DNA from: a virus | Taxonomy: Duplodnaviria; Heunggongvirae; Uroviricota; Caudoviricetes | DNA length: 12,834 bases | IMG/VR virus record: IMGVR_UViG_2526164634_000024 | Span: 1 to 12,834 of that record | Reading direction: 5' to 3' (one strand) | In this document: positions 1-12,834 of the stretch, one piece after another | How positions within the stretch are numbered: position 1 is the first letter of the stretch | How the letters are laid out: the number at the start of each line of letters is the position of its first letter | Translations under genes and position numbers: made by a program | Notes under the pieces: model-generated | Database searches by the model: none | What the model was told of the DNA's origin: nothing | Seen by the model: the letters and a program-made list of their open reading frames with translations, nothing else

Positions 1-960
1 TTACTCCTTGTCCATTGCGTACAGCCCATTAACCAGAGCAAATTGTGGCACCCCGTCCGCGATGAAAGTCGCATTAACTCCGCAGGCTTCGCGGATAGCG
101 GGTGCCACAATCTCCGCCCCGCCACCGACAACCATCACCCGCCCGTAACCCGAAAAACCCGCCAGCGCGCGGATCACGCGTTGTTTCAGTGTTTCTTCCT
201 TTTCACGAATAACCGCCATCAGGCTGGCGTAATGCGCGTCATTGTGGATGTGCTGGCGCAGCCAGGCTTCATCATGGCGATGTTCGATAATGGTATTGGC
301 GATGTGGTGACTGGTGCGCATACCGTTAGTGGCCATCACCGACAGTACGGCATCGGCCATAAGAGAAACGCCTACGTGTGGATCGCAAAACACCTGGCTG
401 ATACCTGCCAGTTGCCCCTGAACCTTTGCCACATCCAGCGTGGTTCCGCCCAAATCCACAATCAGCAGGGATTCAAACGGACTCATGTCAGCCAGTGCTT
501 TAAAGCCAGCCGGAATGGATTCAGGCATAACCCGTACGTTACGGATAGTGAATGCTTCGCCGTTCTGGTACTCCACCGGGCGCATAACGTTCGCTTTTTT
601 GCGGTTGATGTTGGCCATGTCCGGCTGTGCGTTTGTGTCGAAATACTCGCTCAGTGGCAGGGTAACAACCACATCCACTTCCTGTGGCGTGATGTCTGAT
701 TTGACCAGCGCGTGATGAATGGCAATGACATTCACATCGCTGTACTGGTATTGCGTGTCGGTCGTCTGGACAAAGCGATCGCTGACCGGATCAAAACCAT
801 AGCGCACGCCATCAAGCATGTAGTTAGCAGGCTGCGAGCCACCGAACGGCGCAGACCATTCCGACTTGAAGCTGTTCGGGCTGATGGCGTTGCGGCGTTC
901 GCCGTTCTCAGTCCATGCCAGCTTGATGTTGGTGGAGCCGTCGTCGATGTAAATTTTCAT
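1..960 (-). CDS. ParM/StbA-family actin-like ATPase (plasmid-segregation type), complete, 319 aa
   Basis: ORF from ATG at 960 to TAA at 1-3; AAGGA Shine-Dalgarno 8 nt upstream. N-terminus MKIYIDDGSTNIKLAW plus PNSFK, YSDVNV..HHAL, VMPESIPAG, LIVDLGGTTLD and VVGGGAE blocks match actin-fold nucleotide-binding motifs as I recall them from R1/R100 ParM (StbA); size matches ParM (~320 aa). Confidence 0.8.
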   Translation of the reverse strand: MKIYIDDGSTNIKLAWTENGERRNAISPNSFKSEWSAPFGGSQPANYMLDGVRYGFDPVSDRFVQTTDTQYQYSDVNVIAIHHALVKSDITPQEVDVVVTLPLSEYFDTNAQPDMANINRKKANVMRPVEYQNGEAFTIRNVRVMPESIPAGFKALADMSPFESLLIVDLGGTTLDVAKVQGQLAGISQVFCDPHVGVSLMADAVLSVMATNGMRTSHHIANTIIEHRHDEAWLRQHIHNDAHYASLMAVIREKEETLKQRVIRALAGFSGYGRVMVVGGGAEIVAPAIREACGVNATFIADGVPQFALVNGLYAMDKE

Positions 961-991
961 GTCGGTTTTCCTTATGTTGATTAATTAATCG

Positions 992-1103
992 TTTACGGGA
1001 TTCTGAAATCCCGTTTTTGCCTGTTTTGTGCGCGCCTCATATATCGCTGCGCGTTTTTTGCTCATTTACGGGATTCGTGAGTCCCGTTTCTGTCTGTTTT
1101 TTG
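992..1103. repeat. Two imperfect ~39-bp direct repeats (992-1030 and 1065-1103, period 73 bp), each containing a short palindrome (CGGGATT-n4-AATCCCG; ACGGGA-n8-TCCCGT) followed by a T-rich tract
   Basis: Read directly: TTTACGGGATTCTGAAATCCCGTTTTTGCCTGTTTTGTG versus TTTACGGGATTCGTGAGTCCCGTTTCTGTCTGTTTTTTG (~33/39 identical). Copy 1 is intergenic between the replication gene stop and the ParM-like start; copy 2 lies in the last ~20 codons of the replication gene. Confidence 0.6.
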
Positions 1104-3877
1104 TTTCCACTGGTCAGGCCACCCCGCAGCAGGTCTGCTTTGCGGCTGGCGCGTTCAGTGGTTTCACTGATTCTCTGTGCGTGCTCTGCGTCGCGGATGG
1201 CGCGCAGCATGTCAGAAAGCACGGTAACGGGTGTTTTCATGGTGTTCTGGTCCTGCTGAAGTGTGGATGCCAGGCGTGCGGCGGCTTCAGGGTCTGATGC
1301 CCCCAGCTGTGCCAGATAGCTGGCGACCGGGTTATGGCGGATCTCCGTGCTGCTTACGCCATGATTACGGCTCAGACGCTGCCAGAGCTGCGTGATTCGG
1401 CTGTCCGGGCGGGTATCCGGTTTGCGTACAATTTCAAATCCCTGCGGTGCAATGATGCTGCCGTCAACGTACAGACTGCCGCCCCGTAACAGGTGCTGCA
1501 TCTGTTGTTCACCGATATGCAGGCCGAGAGATTCAGCAGACTCCCGCCATTCTTTAGCGAGTAACTCGTGGTTATCAGGCAAAGGCCGCTGCTGTTTGCG
1601 GCTCTGTGTCCAGTTCTGCATTTCATCGCTGCTGTTTTTTGCCTGTTTGTCACGAAGCGAACGCATCAGCGCCCGGCGTTCGTGCCGTTTCAGTGAGCGC
1701 ATCCATTCATTTACTTCAACGCCGTCAGGAAGCTGCGGCCACGGTGCTGGCCGTTCTTCCGGCTGTTCTGTCCCGTTGTTGCCTGTTTCCTGTACACGGG
1801 GACAGTTATTGCCACGAGTCCAAGGGGCGGCAGGGCCGCCCTGAAGGTCAAAACCATTTTCGCGGGCGCTGTCTTCCGCTTCCGGTTTACGTCTTACCAG
1901 CTTCCAGTTATCCGGATGTGTGCACACACGGGAAGACTCCCCGATGAGTGGTGACCAGATCCCGTAAATCTGTACGCTCTGTTCGCCGTAATCGTTCAGC
2001 TCATCTGCGAGGTCGTAGGCGGTGCGAATCAGGTAGTCTTTGCGTGGAACAAGTACGCCGCCCTGTTTTTCAATGTAGGAGGCAAAACACCCGGCATCAG
2101 CGGCAGCGAGCACTGCATCCATTGCGTCATCCTTCAGCCGTTGCGGGCCTTCCGGGTTGCGTGCCATCTGGCTGGCAAGGCGGCGCAGTTCACGCCACAC
2201 CTGACGGGAGGGGATGCCAAAGAACTGGAACTGGCGGACCCGGTGAAGGCGCGCCCAGCCGATGGCGCGCTCCACGCTCTCGGCCATTGATTTTCCGGTT
2301 TCGTGGTCAACGCGTGGCTTGCCCGTTTTCGGGTCGATACCATCCACGGCGCGGCTGTCCAGGTTCTTTCCGATGTAGGTGGCGATGTAGCTGGTCGGTG
2401 TGCCTTTTGAGCCGTCGACGTACTCTGCCTTAAAGCGTGGGGTAATATCATCACCCAGCTCGTGACGATCTTCCTGAATGGCAATATCGCGGGTGTGGGA
2501 CACAATGGTGTCGATTTCTTCCGGATGAGCAAAGACCATCATATGCCAGTGCACGGTGCCGTCATGGTGAGGCTCCACCGTGCGGATGCCATACCAGCGC
2601 AGGCCGTCGCGGTTCAGTTTCTTGCGGACCGCCGCAAAAAACGAGTTAACCAGGTAATCGCTGGAGTCGCGCATAGTGGCCCCGTTCCATTTGGGATTCG
2701 GATGACCGTTCTCCGTTGTTGCGTGGTATTTTGACGGGCAGGTGACAGTCAGAAACACCGCTCTGTCGCCACGGGCTTCGGCCAGAAGTTCCAGCCCCTT
2801 CATGGTGGCCATCATTTCTGCCTTACGGTGAACCGGGTTACTTACTCCCGCGTAATACACTGTCTCAAGATCAATCGTGAACCCGTCTTCGTTTTCCAGC
2901 ATGAAACTTTTCAGGAAATCGCGTGTTTTCTCGCGCTGTGCGCGAAACTCGCTTAACGCATCCTGGCTCAGATAGGGCGATGTTTTTCTGGAAACCAGAC
3001 AGGCGGCGCGGAGTTGTTCTTCTCTCCACTCGCAACGTAACAGCCACAGTTTGCGTTTCCACCATTCCGCACAGGTCAGGCGAAGGATTGCGCCCGGCAG
3101 CAGCTCCGTGTCTGGTTCGTTCCTCCGGCCTTTGTCTGTTGTCAGTGCGTCATAATGCGGAGGCATGGCGTGCAGGTGTAACGCCATGCGGGCCAGCATC
3201 TGATACGCCTTCAGCGTTACATCCATGGTCAGCTCGCCATCAGTCGCACCAAAGCCATCGCAGAGTTTTTCGAAGGTGCTGCTGAACATCGCCGCCGTCA
3301 TGGTGGCCAGCGTCTGTATCTGGTGTTTGTTGAGCTGCGGCAGGTAAAGCAAATCGTCCAGGCGTTCGCGTCCGGCAAGGGAGCGATAACCCGGTGTCAG
3401 CCAGTGTCCGTCAGTGCGATCCAGACGTTCGAATATTTTGCGCAGGGTTCCGCGTGCATAGCGTTCTGCCTGCCAGCTCTTTTTGCCTTTCCGGCGATCG
3501 ACTTCCTGTTTTTTGCGCAGGAAAGAGAGGTGGCGGCTCAGAGGTTCACGCAGATAAACGGGAAGCACCTTCAGTGTGGCAAAAGCACGGGCCACCGGGT
3601 CTTGTTCTGTTGCCTGACGCTTGCTGATGATGCTTTGTGCCAGCTTTTCACGCTGTCCGGCTTCCTCAAGGGATGCCATGAGTTTTTTACCCACGGTGGA
3701 TTGTGCGAAAAAGGCTTCCTCCTTCGCTTCCTGTTCTTCCAGAGCCTTTTTGTCTGCCTCAAGGTAGTAACGGATGGCGCGTTGCAGGTCGGTTTCAGTT
3801 TCCTGCCTGTGCTCCGTAAATCTGGCCGGATCAATGGCTGGCCGTGGTTCATTCCAGCTCCATGCAAACTCATTCAT
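1037..3877 (-). CDS. Phage P2 gpA-family rolling-circle replication initiator (HUH endonuclease), ~946 aa
   Basis: Contains VEPHHDGTVHWHMMVF (HUH-type motif, cf. P2 A VEPHHDGTPHWHMMLF as recalled) and SYIATYIGKNLD (cf. P2 A GYIAKYISKNID). Preferred start is ATG at 3877 (MNEFAWSW...), overlapping the upstream ORF stop as ATGA; the ORF-track start at 3904 is a GTG. Stop TGA at 1037-1039. Confidence 0.85.
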   Translation of the reverse strand: MNEFAWSWNEPRPAIDPARFTEHRQETETDLQRAIRYYLEADKKALEEQEAKEEAFFAQSTVGKKLMASLEEAGQREKLAQSIISKRQATEQDPVARAFATLKVLPVYLREPLSRHLSFLRKKQEVDRRKGKKSWQAERYARGTLRKIFERLDRTDGHWLTPGYRSLAGRERLDDLLYLPQLNKHQIQTLATMTAAMFSSTFEKLCDGFGATDGELTMDVTLKAYQMLARMALHLHAMPPHYDALTTDKGRRNEPDTELLPGAILRLTCAEWWKRKLWLLRCEWREEQLRAACLVSRKTSPYLSQDALSEFRAQREKTRDFLKSFMLENEDGFTIDLETVYYAGVSNPVHRKAEMMATMKGLELLAEARGDRAVFLTVTCPSKYHATTENGHPNPKWNGATMRDSSDYLVNSFFAAVRKKLNRDGLRWYGIRTVEPHHDGTVHWHMMVFAHPEEIDTIVSHTRDIAIQEDRHELGDDITPRFKAEYVDGSKGTPTSYIATYIGKNLDSRAVDGIDPKTGKPRVDHETGKSMAESVERAIGWARLHRVRQFQFFGIPSRQVWRELRRLASQMARNPEGPQRLKDDAMDAVLAAADAGCFASYIEKQGGVLVPRKDYLIRTAYDLADELNDYGEQSVQIYGIWSPLIGESSRVCTHPDNWKLVRRKPEAEDSARENGFDLQGGPAAPWTRGNNCPRVQETGNNGTEQPEERPAPWPQLPDGVEVNEWMRSLKRHERRALMRSLRDKQAKNSSDEMQNWTQSRKQQRPLPDNHELLAKEWRESAESLGLHIGEQQMQHLLRGGSLYVDGSIIAPQGFEIVRKPDTRPDSRITQLWQRLSRNHGVSSTEIRHNPVASYLAQLGASDPEAAARLASTLQQDQNTMKTPVTVLSDMLRAIRDAEHAQRISETTERASRKADLLRGGLTSGNKKQTETGLTNPVNEQKTRSDI

Positions 3878-6091: not shown

Positions 6092-6183
6092 TTTATATCT
6101 CCGTTATTTACGTGTGCGAATACCTCCGCGAATGCGGATAGTTTTCAGGTTTTCGGGTTTAATCTGGTGTTTTGTTTAAGCTG

Positions 6184-7563: not shown

Positions 7564-7875
7564 ATGTCAATAGAGATATCAAAGAAGCTAAAAGCAATTC
7601 GAGAATCTGAGGGACTTAGCCAGGCAAAGTTCGCGGATTCAATAGGTATTGCGGTTGGTACAGTTAAGCAATATGAGACTGGTATTAGAGGTGTGGGGAC
7701 GGAGGTTTTACTGAAAATCACAATGCATCCGAACTTTAAAAAATACACCACGTGGTTGATGAGTAACGAAACAAATGAGGCTGCTGGGCAGATCAGTCCG
7801 TCTCTCTCCCCTGATGGGCCAAAAAGCACATCGCCTTCTCAAAAACCCCGCAAGACTGGCACACAGCCCGGCTAA
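7564..7875 (+). CDS. P2 C-type immunity repressor (XRE-like HTH), 103 aa
   Basis: Start at internal ATG 7564 (MSIEISKK...) with AGGTG Shine-Dalgarno at 7 nt. HTH region LSQAKFADSIGIAVGTVKQYETG and C-terminal ...PNFKKYTTWLMSNE...AAGQISP resemble P2 C (..PQFTKYTLWFMTNQ...SGQIAP) as recalled. Located directly upstream of int, as in P2. Confidence 0.8.
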   Translation: MSIEISKKLKAIRESEGLSQAKFADSIGIAVGTVKQYETGIRGVGTEVLLKITMHPNFKKYTTWLMSNETNEAAGQISPSLSPDGPKSTSPSQKPRKTGTQPG

Positions 7876-7924
7876 TCATGGAGCGCTGGGGGCATGGTGG
7901 TCTTGTAACGCTGGGGTTTCACGA

Positions 7925-8902
7925 ATGAGCATAAAATCAATTCCGGGAGGGTATCTTCTTGACATGCGCCCGGAGGGGCGTAAAGGCAAACGCATTCGCA
8001 AAAAATTTAAAACGAAATCGGATGCAGTTTTATATGAGCGGTGGGTGCTGGCGCAACAGCATAACAATGAGTGGAAAGGAAACTCCATTGATCGCCGTCC
8101 GCTGTCAGTGCTTATTGACTTGTGGTGGAAATACCACGGCCAGCTAATGAAGTCAGGGCATAACACGCGCCTTAAATTGCTGCGCTTGAGTGAGGCAATG
8201 GATGACCCGTGCGTGCATAAACTTAATACAACGATGCTCACCGAGCTACGTGTGTCCAGGATAGAGCAGGGGATACAGCCCAGCACCATAAATCGAGAGA
8301 TTGGGGCGTTAAGCGCGATGTTTACCGCACTCATCTCATCCGGCCATTTTCTTAACGATAACCCCGTTCAAGGCCTTAAAGGAATGAAGGTTAACGAGCG
8401 CGAAATGGGATATCTGAGTAAGTCTGAATGTGTTCAGTTGCTGGATGCACTGGCTGAAAATCCCGATGAACGACTGGCTGTCGAAATCCTTCTGTCGACC
8501 GGGGCGCGATGGGGCGAGGTAGCGGCACTGGAGCAGCGCCGTGTTCTTCATTGTCGAATCACTTTTTCAAAAACGAAGAACAGCAAAAACCGTACCGTTC
8601 CTATTTCTGAAAGCCTGTTTGAAAAGATCAAAAAACGGGGCGGGAAACTGGTGTTTCCGACGCTGGATTATTCATTGGTTCGCGATGTCATCAAAACGGT
8701 CGCACCTGATGTTCCTGACGGCCAGGCTGTTCATGCGCTGCGCCACACCTTCGCCAGTCATTTCATGATGAACGGCGGCAATATTCTGACGCTCCAGAAA
8801 ATTCTGGGGCACGCAAAGATTCAGACAACGATGATTTATGCCCATCTTGCGCCGGATTACCTGCAGGATGCGGTGAGGTTTAATCCACTAGGAGGTGCTT
8901 AA
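7925..8902 (+). CDS. int: Tyrosine integrase, P2 Int-like, 325 aa
   Basis: Start at ATG 7925 (MSIKSIPGGY...). Conserved catalytic-region motifs LSTGARWGE, HALRHTFASHF and MIYAHLAPDY (catalytic Tyr); strong overall resemblance to P2 Int as recalled (GKRIRKKF, TGARWGE, PISE, NGG.I.TLQ.ILGH). Confidence 0.9.
   Translation: MSIKSIPGGYLLDMRPEGRKGKRIRKKFKTKSDAVLYERWVLAQQHNNEWKGNSIDRRPLSVLIDLWWKYHGQLMKSGHNTRLKLLRLSEAMDDPCVHKLNTTMLTELRVSRIEQGIQPSTINREIGALSAMFTALISSGHFLNDNPVQGLKGMKVNEREMGYLSKSECVQLLDALAENPDERLAVEILLSTGARWGEVAALEQRRVLHCRITFSKTKNSKNRTVPISESLFEKIKKRGGKLVFPTLDYSLVRDVIKTVAPDVPDGQAVHALRHTFASHFMMNGGNILTLQKILGHAKIQTTMIYAHLAPDYLQDAVRFNPLGGA

Positions 8903-9864: not shown

Positions 9865-12834
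<2,970 letters not shown>

Follow-up and report, generated by a model that had tools for sequence, protein, structure and literature searches.

A conserved pair of palindromic repeats upstream of parM in P88-like prophages is a candidate split parC-type centromere

Introduction

The type II centromere, parC, lies immediately upstream of the parM-parR genes and is either continuous or split in two blocks (reviewed in PMC5016525). The characterised type II centromeres consist of tandem repeats, either in a continuous array or divided by the par promoter; each iteron binds one ParR dimer, and the C-terminal tail of ParR binds ParM (PMC5016525). The srpC site of the SXT/R391 elements is made of few short direct and inverted repeats; SrpR bound 40-bp fragments carrying two repeats, and single repeats gave no stable complexes (PMC4489591). 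AlpAC of the Corynebacterium prophage CGP3 is reported, in the passages that describe it, to support viral DNA transport and replication and not plasmid inheritance (PMC4446434; PMC5539076).

Between gpA and gpQ, roughly one in four E. coli P2-like phages has what a passage of a recent report terms a 'putative plasmid partitioning system' (Rousset et al., 2022; PMC9122126). The passages of that report on the gpA-gpQ partition system describe genes only, and name no cis-acting site, repeat or centromere.

We have analyzed a stretch of 12,834 nucleotides of viral DNA (here termed the window, at its full length) in which an initial annotation had noted a pair of repeats next to a parM-like gene. 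Three roles had been offered for the pair, a parC-like centromere or autoregulatory site, a replication-origin element, or paired terminators, and these had been taken to be inseparable from sequence alone. We show that comparative data do separate the three options. The finding is real and functional-looking, and represents a new architectural layout in an already known cassette.

Results

The parM-parR cassette of a P88-like prophage

The window covers the left portion of a P2-type prophage of the P88-like kind (Xuanwuvirus, Peduoviridae); the region searched matches E. coli O157:H7 FRIK944 at 99.9% identity. The minus strand carries all phage genes around the repeats. The parM gene (1–960, minus strand) encodes a 319-aa actin-like partition ATPase (Pfam StbA_N, 9.8e-81; ParM_N, 1.3e-68), which the R1 ParM structure 1MWK matches with an E value of 1.7e-92. 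The neighboring replication endonuclease gene (gpA family, P2-type Rep; 1037–3877, minus strand; Phage_GPA, 2.2e-130) is annotated in RefSeq as 946 aa, and its stop codon occupies 1037–1039 of the minus strand. The gene for ParR (103 aa) directly follows parM just beyond the window and is known from the matching genome, where the gene order is parM, parR, a small ORF and the portal gene. ParR belongs to the Pfam family Plasmid_stab_B (PF10784; 9.8e-24) and aligns with R1-type ParR. No defence-family match was obtained for ParM, ParR or the downstream ORF with PADLOC.

The cassette occupies the variable hotspot that P2-like phages have between gpA and gpQ. Among 5,426 complete E. coli genomes, 1,372 carry it, including strains of O157:H7 and ST131. 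Farther along, the window carries the prophage integrase (7775–8902) and, past the prophage end, a host AcrB/AcrD-family efflux pump gene (9865–12834), so that it spans the attachment junction. We also observed that a complete P88-like genome, with integrase, C, Cox, Rep, ParM, ParR and all structural genes, has been deposited from an E. coli isolate as a 34.5-kb circular 'plasmid', pZ1323PEC0009-2 (L236, NZ_CP148288.1, 1–34461; also L006). The deposit may represent a genuine episome, or else an excised circle that entered the assembly.

Two palindromic direct repeats precede parM

Two 42-nt direct repeats, at 989–1030 (proximal to parM) and 1062–1103 (distal), are identical at 34 of 42 positions (81%). 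When the 500-bp region was shuffled 200 times with dinucleotides preserved, no 42-nt direct repeat exceeded 28 of 42. The repeat pair of the initial annotation is thus confirmed as two direct copies beyond the shuffle maximum, with a unit of 42 nt in place of the ∼39 bp first given; their start-to-start distance is 73 bp (seven helical turns). The distal unit falls within the last ∼22 codons of Rep and the proximal unit in the Rep-parM intergenic region, as had been described.

On the gene strand each unit has the same order: an A-rich tract (AAAAACAGACAGAAAC in the distal and CACAAAACAGGCAAAAAC in the proximal unit), a palindrome, and GTAAAY (GTAAATGA and GTAAACGA, respectively). The tract had been recorded as a T-rich tail; the tract itself holds, and on the gene (minus) strand it is an A-rich run that comes before the palindrome. 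The palindrome, ACGGGAyTC-N5-TCCCGT, is 20 nt long, is hairpin-capable in both copies as the initial annotation had it, and lies at 995–1014 and 1068–1087. It gave four strand-matches in the 12.8-kb window vs. 0.29 expected, a number reached in 0 of 200 shuffles, and no further copies were found elsewhere in the 12.8-kb window, the immunity (C/Cox) region included.

Each palindrome contains a 16-bp core of the form GGG-N10-CCC. The distal core, GGGACTCACGAATCCC (1070–1085, minus strand), is centred 117.5 bp before the parM ATG, and the proximal core, GGGATTTCAGAATCCC (997–1012, minus strand), 44.5 bp before it and 73 bp from the distal core. Together the two units span 29 to 143 bp upstream of the parM start (989–1103), within a site of ∼150 bp. 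The central spacer between them (1031–1061) contains the Rep stop codon and an A6 run (1054–1059), and is the most polymorphic stretch. The leader from the proximal unit to parM (961–988, minus strand) contains ATTAATCAA at 977–985 and a ribosome-binding site, AAGGAAAA, at 966–973. A tandem array of 10–11-bp iterons was not found, the autocorrelation having its only peak at lag 73, and no Rfam family matched.

The repeats accompany parMR rather than Rep

On the comparisons that follow, the repeats belong to the parM-parR cassette and not to Rep. The Rep protein of E. coli M1/5 is about 99% identical to that of the window over its core (residues ∼120–910, the whole nuclease domain included), and despite this near-identity M1/5 has no repeat. 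Its homology to the window ends at ∼1149, its Rep ends in ...DKGNSEKKK*, and its cargo consists of an AAA ATPase and an S8 peptidase. Two more Rep-only loci break at ∼1149–1153. Other cargo cassettes in the gpA-gpQ hotspot likewise have no palindrome, and an APEC locus (L100) retains only a fragment of the A-tract, with its homology breakpoint at ∼1086.

The IMG/VR locus L074 has a 783-aa Rep, with an unrelated 155-aa ORF between it and parM. The locus becomes homologous to the window at ∼1103, where the distal unit has its outer edge, and the 155-aa ORF and the window Rep end in the same 21 residues. Since this ORF shares the tail and the M1/5 Rep is without the repeat, the 'Rep tail' is whatever the upstream gene reads from the cassette; the last ∼20 codons of Rep are simply read from the distal unit. 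In the Hafnia locus L109 the gene ahead of parM is an unrelated 167-aa ORF whose reading frame continues through the site, and a methyltransferase-like gene and a small ORF stand between Rep and parM in the Enterobacter locus L113, which has a different site layout. The parMR genes can also be found with neither Rep nor repeats: in the E. coli locus L101 (NZ_CP085183.1, 2500–2960) parM and parR are intact, Rep and both repeats are gone, and a deletion joins a DUF4761 early gene to parM, with the junction exactly at the edge of the proximal palindrome (window ∼994).

The length of Rep itself differs between these loci. It is 946 aa in the window, and relatives have a Rep of ∼785–835 aa followed by a separate ORF of 155 or 167 aa (spans compared: window 1037–3877, L074 109–2924, L109 946–3956). 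Neither ORF (L074, L109) has a Pfam match, and the 155-aa ORF of L074 shows no similarity to the C-terminus of the window Rep beyond the repeat-encoded tail, nor to the 167-aa ORF.

The P2 origin lies within gene A, and HUH nucleases often act at hairpins. With one copy inside the Rep gene, the repeats might therefore be a replication element, namely an origin, nick site or Rep-binding site of the P2-type rolling-circle initiator. Yet M1/5 keeps the whole Phage_GPA domain and is without the repeat, L100 has the A-tract fragment only, and in L074, L109 and L113 the site adjoins parM, with other genes between it and Rep. The origin proposal of the initial annotation is disfavored by this comparison, and we consider it very improbable that the repeats are a replication element.

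The breakpoints described above bear on another reading, that of a recombination scar: exchange of cargo at the gpA-gpQ hotspot would have left the 3′-end of a replication-gene allele behind in duplicate, and the repeat would either be functionless in itself or serve solely as a favored crossover point. These breakpoints coincide or nearly coincide with the edges of the units (∼1103 of the window for L074, ∼1086 for L100 and ∼994 for L101), and translation of the intergenic copy gives a peptide resembling the Rep tail. Recombination remnants are reported to be common in the gpA-gpQ hotspots of P2-like phages (PMC13586616). However, the other cargo cassettes of the hotspot are without the palindrome, and the Rep-tail peptide is not conserved. 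The core, its 72–73-bp spacing and its distance from parM, on the other hand, are kept while the flanks diverge (ParM 62%; see below). We hold a scar to be unlikely.

The core pair persists in diverged relatives

Lineages with ParM proteins 94% and 62% identical to that of the window were found by a large protein search combined with contig look-ups. Scans of viral contigs and genomes with ParM yielded relatives at 97–100% or ∼50% only, and a plasmid search with ParR returned prophage-bearing records only. With the E. coli window as the ParM reference and all cores read on the parM strand, the Hafnia locus L104 (ParM 94%, ParR 75%) has GGGATTCATGAATCCC as distal and GGGATTTGAAAATCCC as proximal core, 73 bp apart; the Hafnia locus L109 (ParM 62%) has GGGATTGAGGAAACCC and GGGTTCATTAAATCCC, also 73 bp apart; and the Plesiomonas locus L111 (ParM 62%) has GGGACAACAAAAACCC and GGGACAACACTAACCC, 72 bp apart. 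In all three, as in the window, the site is placed immediately upstream of parM-parR.

In each of the four lineages, the 300 nt ahead of parM contain GGG-N10-CCC two times and no more, at −117 to −124 and −44 to −52, with 72–73 bp between the cores. It is absent from the equivalent region of ten plasmid or symbiont parM loci. A core pair 71–74 bp apart arose in 0 of 20,000 shuffles of the upstream region of L109, and in 0 of 20,000 of that of L111. What has changed in L104, L109 and L111 is the surrounding sequence, the encoded peptides and the long A-rich flank. In L104 the sequence of the spacer is changed and its length kept, and Rep stops inside the distal core (...KQKRDS*); in L109 the spacer is unrelated to that of the window. 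Both copies in L111 read GGGACAACA..AACCC. The two copies inside one genome are more alike than copies between genomes (L111 and L074, where both copies share one G-to-A change), as one would predict if a single specific binder recognized both sites.

The initial annotation had suggested that related elements retaining the same genes be searched for the repeat, and the outcome favors function, the core being kept. It also supports the centromere or autoregulatory option, as the repeats travel with parMR and as core, spacing and distance from parM are retained at 62% ParM identity. Across 114 scored IMG/VR loci the core spacing was 73 bp in 109, 74 bp in three and 72 bp in two. A scan of viral contigs for the double palindrome returned P88-like loci only, all adjoining parM; these loci are homologous and are thus not independent evidence.

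A different site was found upstream of parM in Serratia L112 (3850–3970) and Enterobacter L113 (3850–3975), where ParM is 54–58% identical and the ParR strand reads NRKISFYLKP. It consists of a 19–20-nt inverted repeat (in the perfect 19-nt version AGGAACGAAATAGAAAAAT, 28 nt, then the complement) with flanking direct repeats, TTCC..AAAA...TTAAAnGGC, 92–93 bp apart.

The leader element ATTAATCAA (977–985) is, on reading the sequences, kept across the E. coli, Hafnia and Plesiomonas lineages despite diverging neighbors. Its interpretation as a −10 element or an IHF site was unconvincing, and promoter readings by eye were inconsistent between lineages.

Arms, centre and spacer within the E. coli clade

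Variation within the E. coli clade was compared over 46 haplotypes (distinct sequences). The distal A-tract (1091–1101) and, in the cores, GGA and AATCC(C) are invariant, and the palindrome centre and the spacer vary freely. The spacer shows whole-segment replacements among haplotypes, e.g., from GCGATATATGA to CATAAAACATGA. The A6 run (1054–1059, minus strand) has five or seven A in three of the 46 distinct sequences, giving core spacings of 72 or 74 bp; Rep is fused to a small ORF and ends in ...TGFQNPVND* in the five-A variant, and in the seven-A variant Rep ends later and the small ORF is truncated.

Covariation for an RNA hairpin was considered and rejected, because natural stem variants favor neither RNA strand consistently: they form G-U pairs on the gene strand in the proximal copy and on the opposite strand only in the distal copy. 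Conserved arms, a variable centre and a fixed spacing point to a binding site for a protein on double-stranded DNA rather than to an RNA or DNA hairpin.

Terminator, promoter and peptide predictions

The units might be intrinsic terminators for antisense (plus-strand) transcripts, guarding the early operon from convergent transcription. On the plus strand of the window each has the appropriate shape, an 8-bp stem, a 4-nt loop and a T-rich run, with a hairpin of about −10 kcal/mol in E. coli; the shape is called in L104 as well, again on the plus strand only, and two different palindromes of Serratia L112 are also called terminator-like. No gene or predicted promoter lies upstream on the plus strand, however, and no U-run follows the hairpin on the gene strand. 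L109 and L111 keep the core with stems of only 3–4 bp, loops of 10 nt and no T-run, and no terminator is called in either. The inconsistent strand preference of the stem variants also argues against this reading, in which a fixed 73-bp spacing has no role. The paired terminators of the initial annotation are thus disfavored, and we consider a terminator role quite unlikely.

A crude consensus scan predicted no sigma-70-like promoters in the window region, L104, L109, L111 or L112, and the same scan found the central promoters in two plasmid parC controls (L095 and L008). With no predicted promoter, the autoregulatory half of the parC definition does not apply here in its usual form: the overlap with a par promoter was not detected by the sigma-70 scan, and weak or non-sigma-70 promoters are possible.

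The conserved feature could also be a peptide, either a C-terminal motif, K-Q-x-x-T-G-x-x-N-P-V-N, that Rep has in common with a 26-aa ORF, or this ORF as a real gene. Both copies are read in an equivalent frame, giving KQTETGLTNPVNE and KQAKTGFQNPVND, and a 26-codon ORF, MSKKRAAIYEARTKQAKTGFQNPVND* (985–1065, minus strand), spans the spacer and the proximal unit and is open in most haplotypes and in L104. Nevertheless, L104 loses the motif and keeps the DNA core, its 26-codon ORF differs at 12 of 26 residues with one synonymous change only, which is not protein-like constraint, and the same tail is found on the unrelated ORF of L074. The 26-codon ORF has no ribosome-binding site before its ATG and no equivalent in L109 or L111. 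We judged it incidental, and a conserved peptide is the least probable of the readings considered.

ParR and the candidate half-sites

No DNA-binding protein other than ParR is always found together with the site. The N-terminal strand of ParR, TRRISFYLKP, is invariant across all E. coli-clade alleles (set: L003 3086–3397, L004, L011–L090 and P0001–P0084), the rest falls to 55% identity, and the C-terminal tip NI(R/Q)xLFPE is kept. ParR alleles down to 55% thus leave almost no variation to pair with variation in the site, and the DNA-reading strand barely varies among the GGG-N10-CCC lineages. The protein is also a mosaic, with residues 1–24 and the last ∼8 nearly invariant and the middle and C-terminal half hypervariable (to 55%), over loci in which ParM is 97–100% identical. 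This mosaicism may reflect diversifying selection or recombination.

Within the core, GGGAy and AAWCCC are the candidate ParR half-sites, and their centres are ∼11 bp apart, about one helical turn. Such a spacing would suit two ribbon-helix-helix dimers on adjacent major grooves. The right half-site and its tail fit AAWCCCNNAAAY, which resembles the R1 parC iteron; this pattern was derived from the phage sites, so that only the match to the R1 iterons is independent. The iteron-like 12-mers of the window are AATCCCGTAAAT (1064–1075, minus strand) and AATCCCGTAAAC (991–1002, minus strand). AAACCCAAAAAC of L109 is identical to two iterons of the R1-type parC of L008, whose ParM matches R1 ParM (PDB 1MWK) at 319 of 320 residues. 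A third exact iteron-like match in the window, AAACCCGAAAAC (6149–6160, minus strand), lies in an intergenic part of the early region as a single copy with no palindrome, and is probably due to chance. A-tracts are phased at 10–11 bp in the window (10 of 1000 shuffles), in L104 (33 of 1000) and in the R1-type parC (20 of 1000), and no phasing at 10–11 bp was seen in L109 or L111.

A protein other than ParR, whether a host factor or a phage regulator, might bind the palindromes and control read-through into parMR, in which case the site would be an operator and not a centromere. Conserved arms with a variable centre suit any dimeric DNA-binding protein, binding by ParR is itself a prediction, and with no promoter inside the site a regulator other than ParR would have to act on read-through. 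Against this, the palindrome is unique in the window, with the C/Cox region included in the count, the site moves with parMR among different phage backbones and upstream genes, ParR is the sole DNA-binding protein that always travels with it, and the half-site resembles the R1 ParR iteron. A binder other than ParR is unlikely, although it is the alternative we take most seriously.

Discussion

The reading that we favor, and hold to be probable though far from certain on the strength of sequence comparison, is that the two units form a split parC-type centromere or operator of the R1-family ParM/ParR system of the prophage. The comparisons show the position of the site, its linkage to parMR and the conservation of core, spacing and distance from parM; that ParR is the binder we infer, and each step set out below would depend on that binding. 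Several observations weigh against this reading: the strong sites number only two, no sigma-70 promoter was predicted in any phage lineage scanned, A-tract phasing was not seen in L109 or L111, the Serratia and Enterobacter relatives have another layout, and L101 retains parMR with neither repeat.

Each arm would provide a 16-bp palindromic core, GGGAyT-N4-AAWCCC, whose half-sites would be bound by ParR, a predicted ribbon-helix-helix protein, in dimeric form. With the cores spaced by 73 bp (seven helical turns), both ParR complexes would lie on one face of the DNA. They could then join into one wrapped ParR-DNA complex, aided in the E. coli clade by the phased A-tracts, and the conserved C-terminal tips of ParR would capture the ends of growing ParM filaments. 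Filament growth would then drive the copies of an excised or replicating phage genome away from each other. The upstream gene, whatever its identity, would read into the site until its stop codon. As the site has no predicted promoter of its own, parMR probably depends on transcripts that read through from the early (Rep) operon, and ParR bound at the site would act as a roadblock or operator on that read-through.

A bolder extension, which we put forward tentatively and which may well be wrong, is that this is a minimal, two-site and promoterless centromere, driven from the early operon, by which an integrative, rolling-circle P2-like phage would be actively partitioned or positioned when excised or replicating. 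If so, a plasmid-like or carrier state would be hidden in one in four E. coli P2-like prophages, and the site would be a compact natural type II centromere with two palindromes instead of ten iterons, informative on how few ParR dimers suffice to cap a ParM filament. The cis site offers a testable handle, a 190-bp fragment with four half-sites and 73-bp spacing, also on why an integrating phage keeps an actin-type segregation machine, be it for episomal carriage, positioning or prophage incompatibility.

Among the described systems, AlpAC/alpS of the Corynebacterium prophage CGP3 is similar in that a prophage encodes an actin-like protein and a DNA-binding adaptor that acts on specific phage DNA sites; the likeness is one of description, taken from the passages on that system and not from sequence comparison, and the actin-like family, the adaptor and the host phylum differ. 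The SrpMRC locus of SXT/R391, with its srpC site, is likewise a type II locus on a normally integrated element (PMC4489591). It differs in that SrpR has no detectable ParR similarity, the repeats are 13 bp long and of unrelated sequence, and the element is conjugative.

The closest likeness is to parC of R1. The phage site occupies the upstream position that defines parC, its partners are ParM and a predicted ribbon-helix-helix ParR, and plasmid relatives have the same upstream layout. Like R1 parC, it lies directly upstream of parM-parR as two blocks ∼70 bp apart; ParM matches its R1 counterpart (E value 1.7e-92) and ParR is of the same Pfam family (PF10784); the phage half-site with its tail resembles the R1 iteron AAACCCAAAAAC, and A-tracts are phased at 10–11 bp. 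In contrast, in R1 parC the par promoter is flanked on either side by five 11-bp direct iterons, ten in all, whereas the phage has two 16-bp palindromes with no predicted promoter between them and places its distal block inside the coding end of the upstream gene. The strong sites of the phage are thus only two (four half-sites), compared with the ten iterons of R1.
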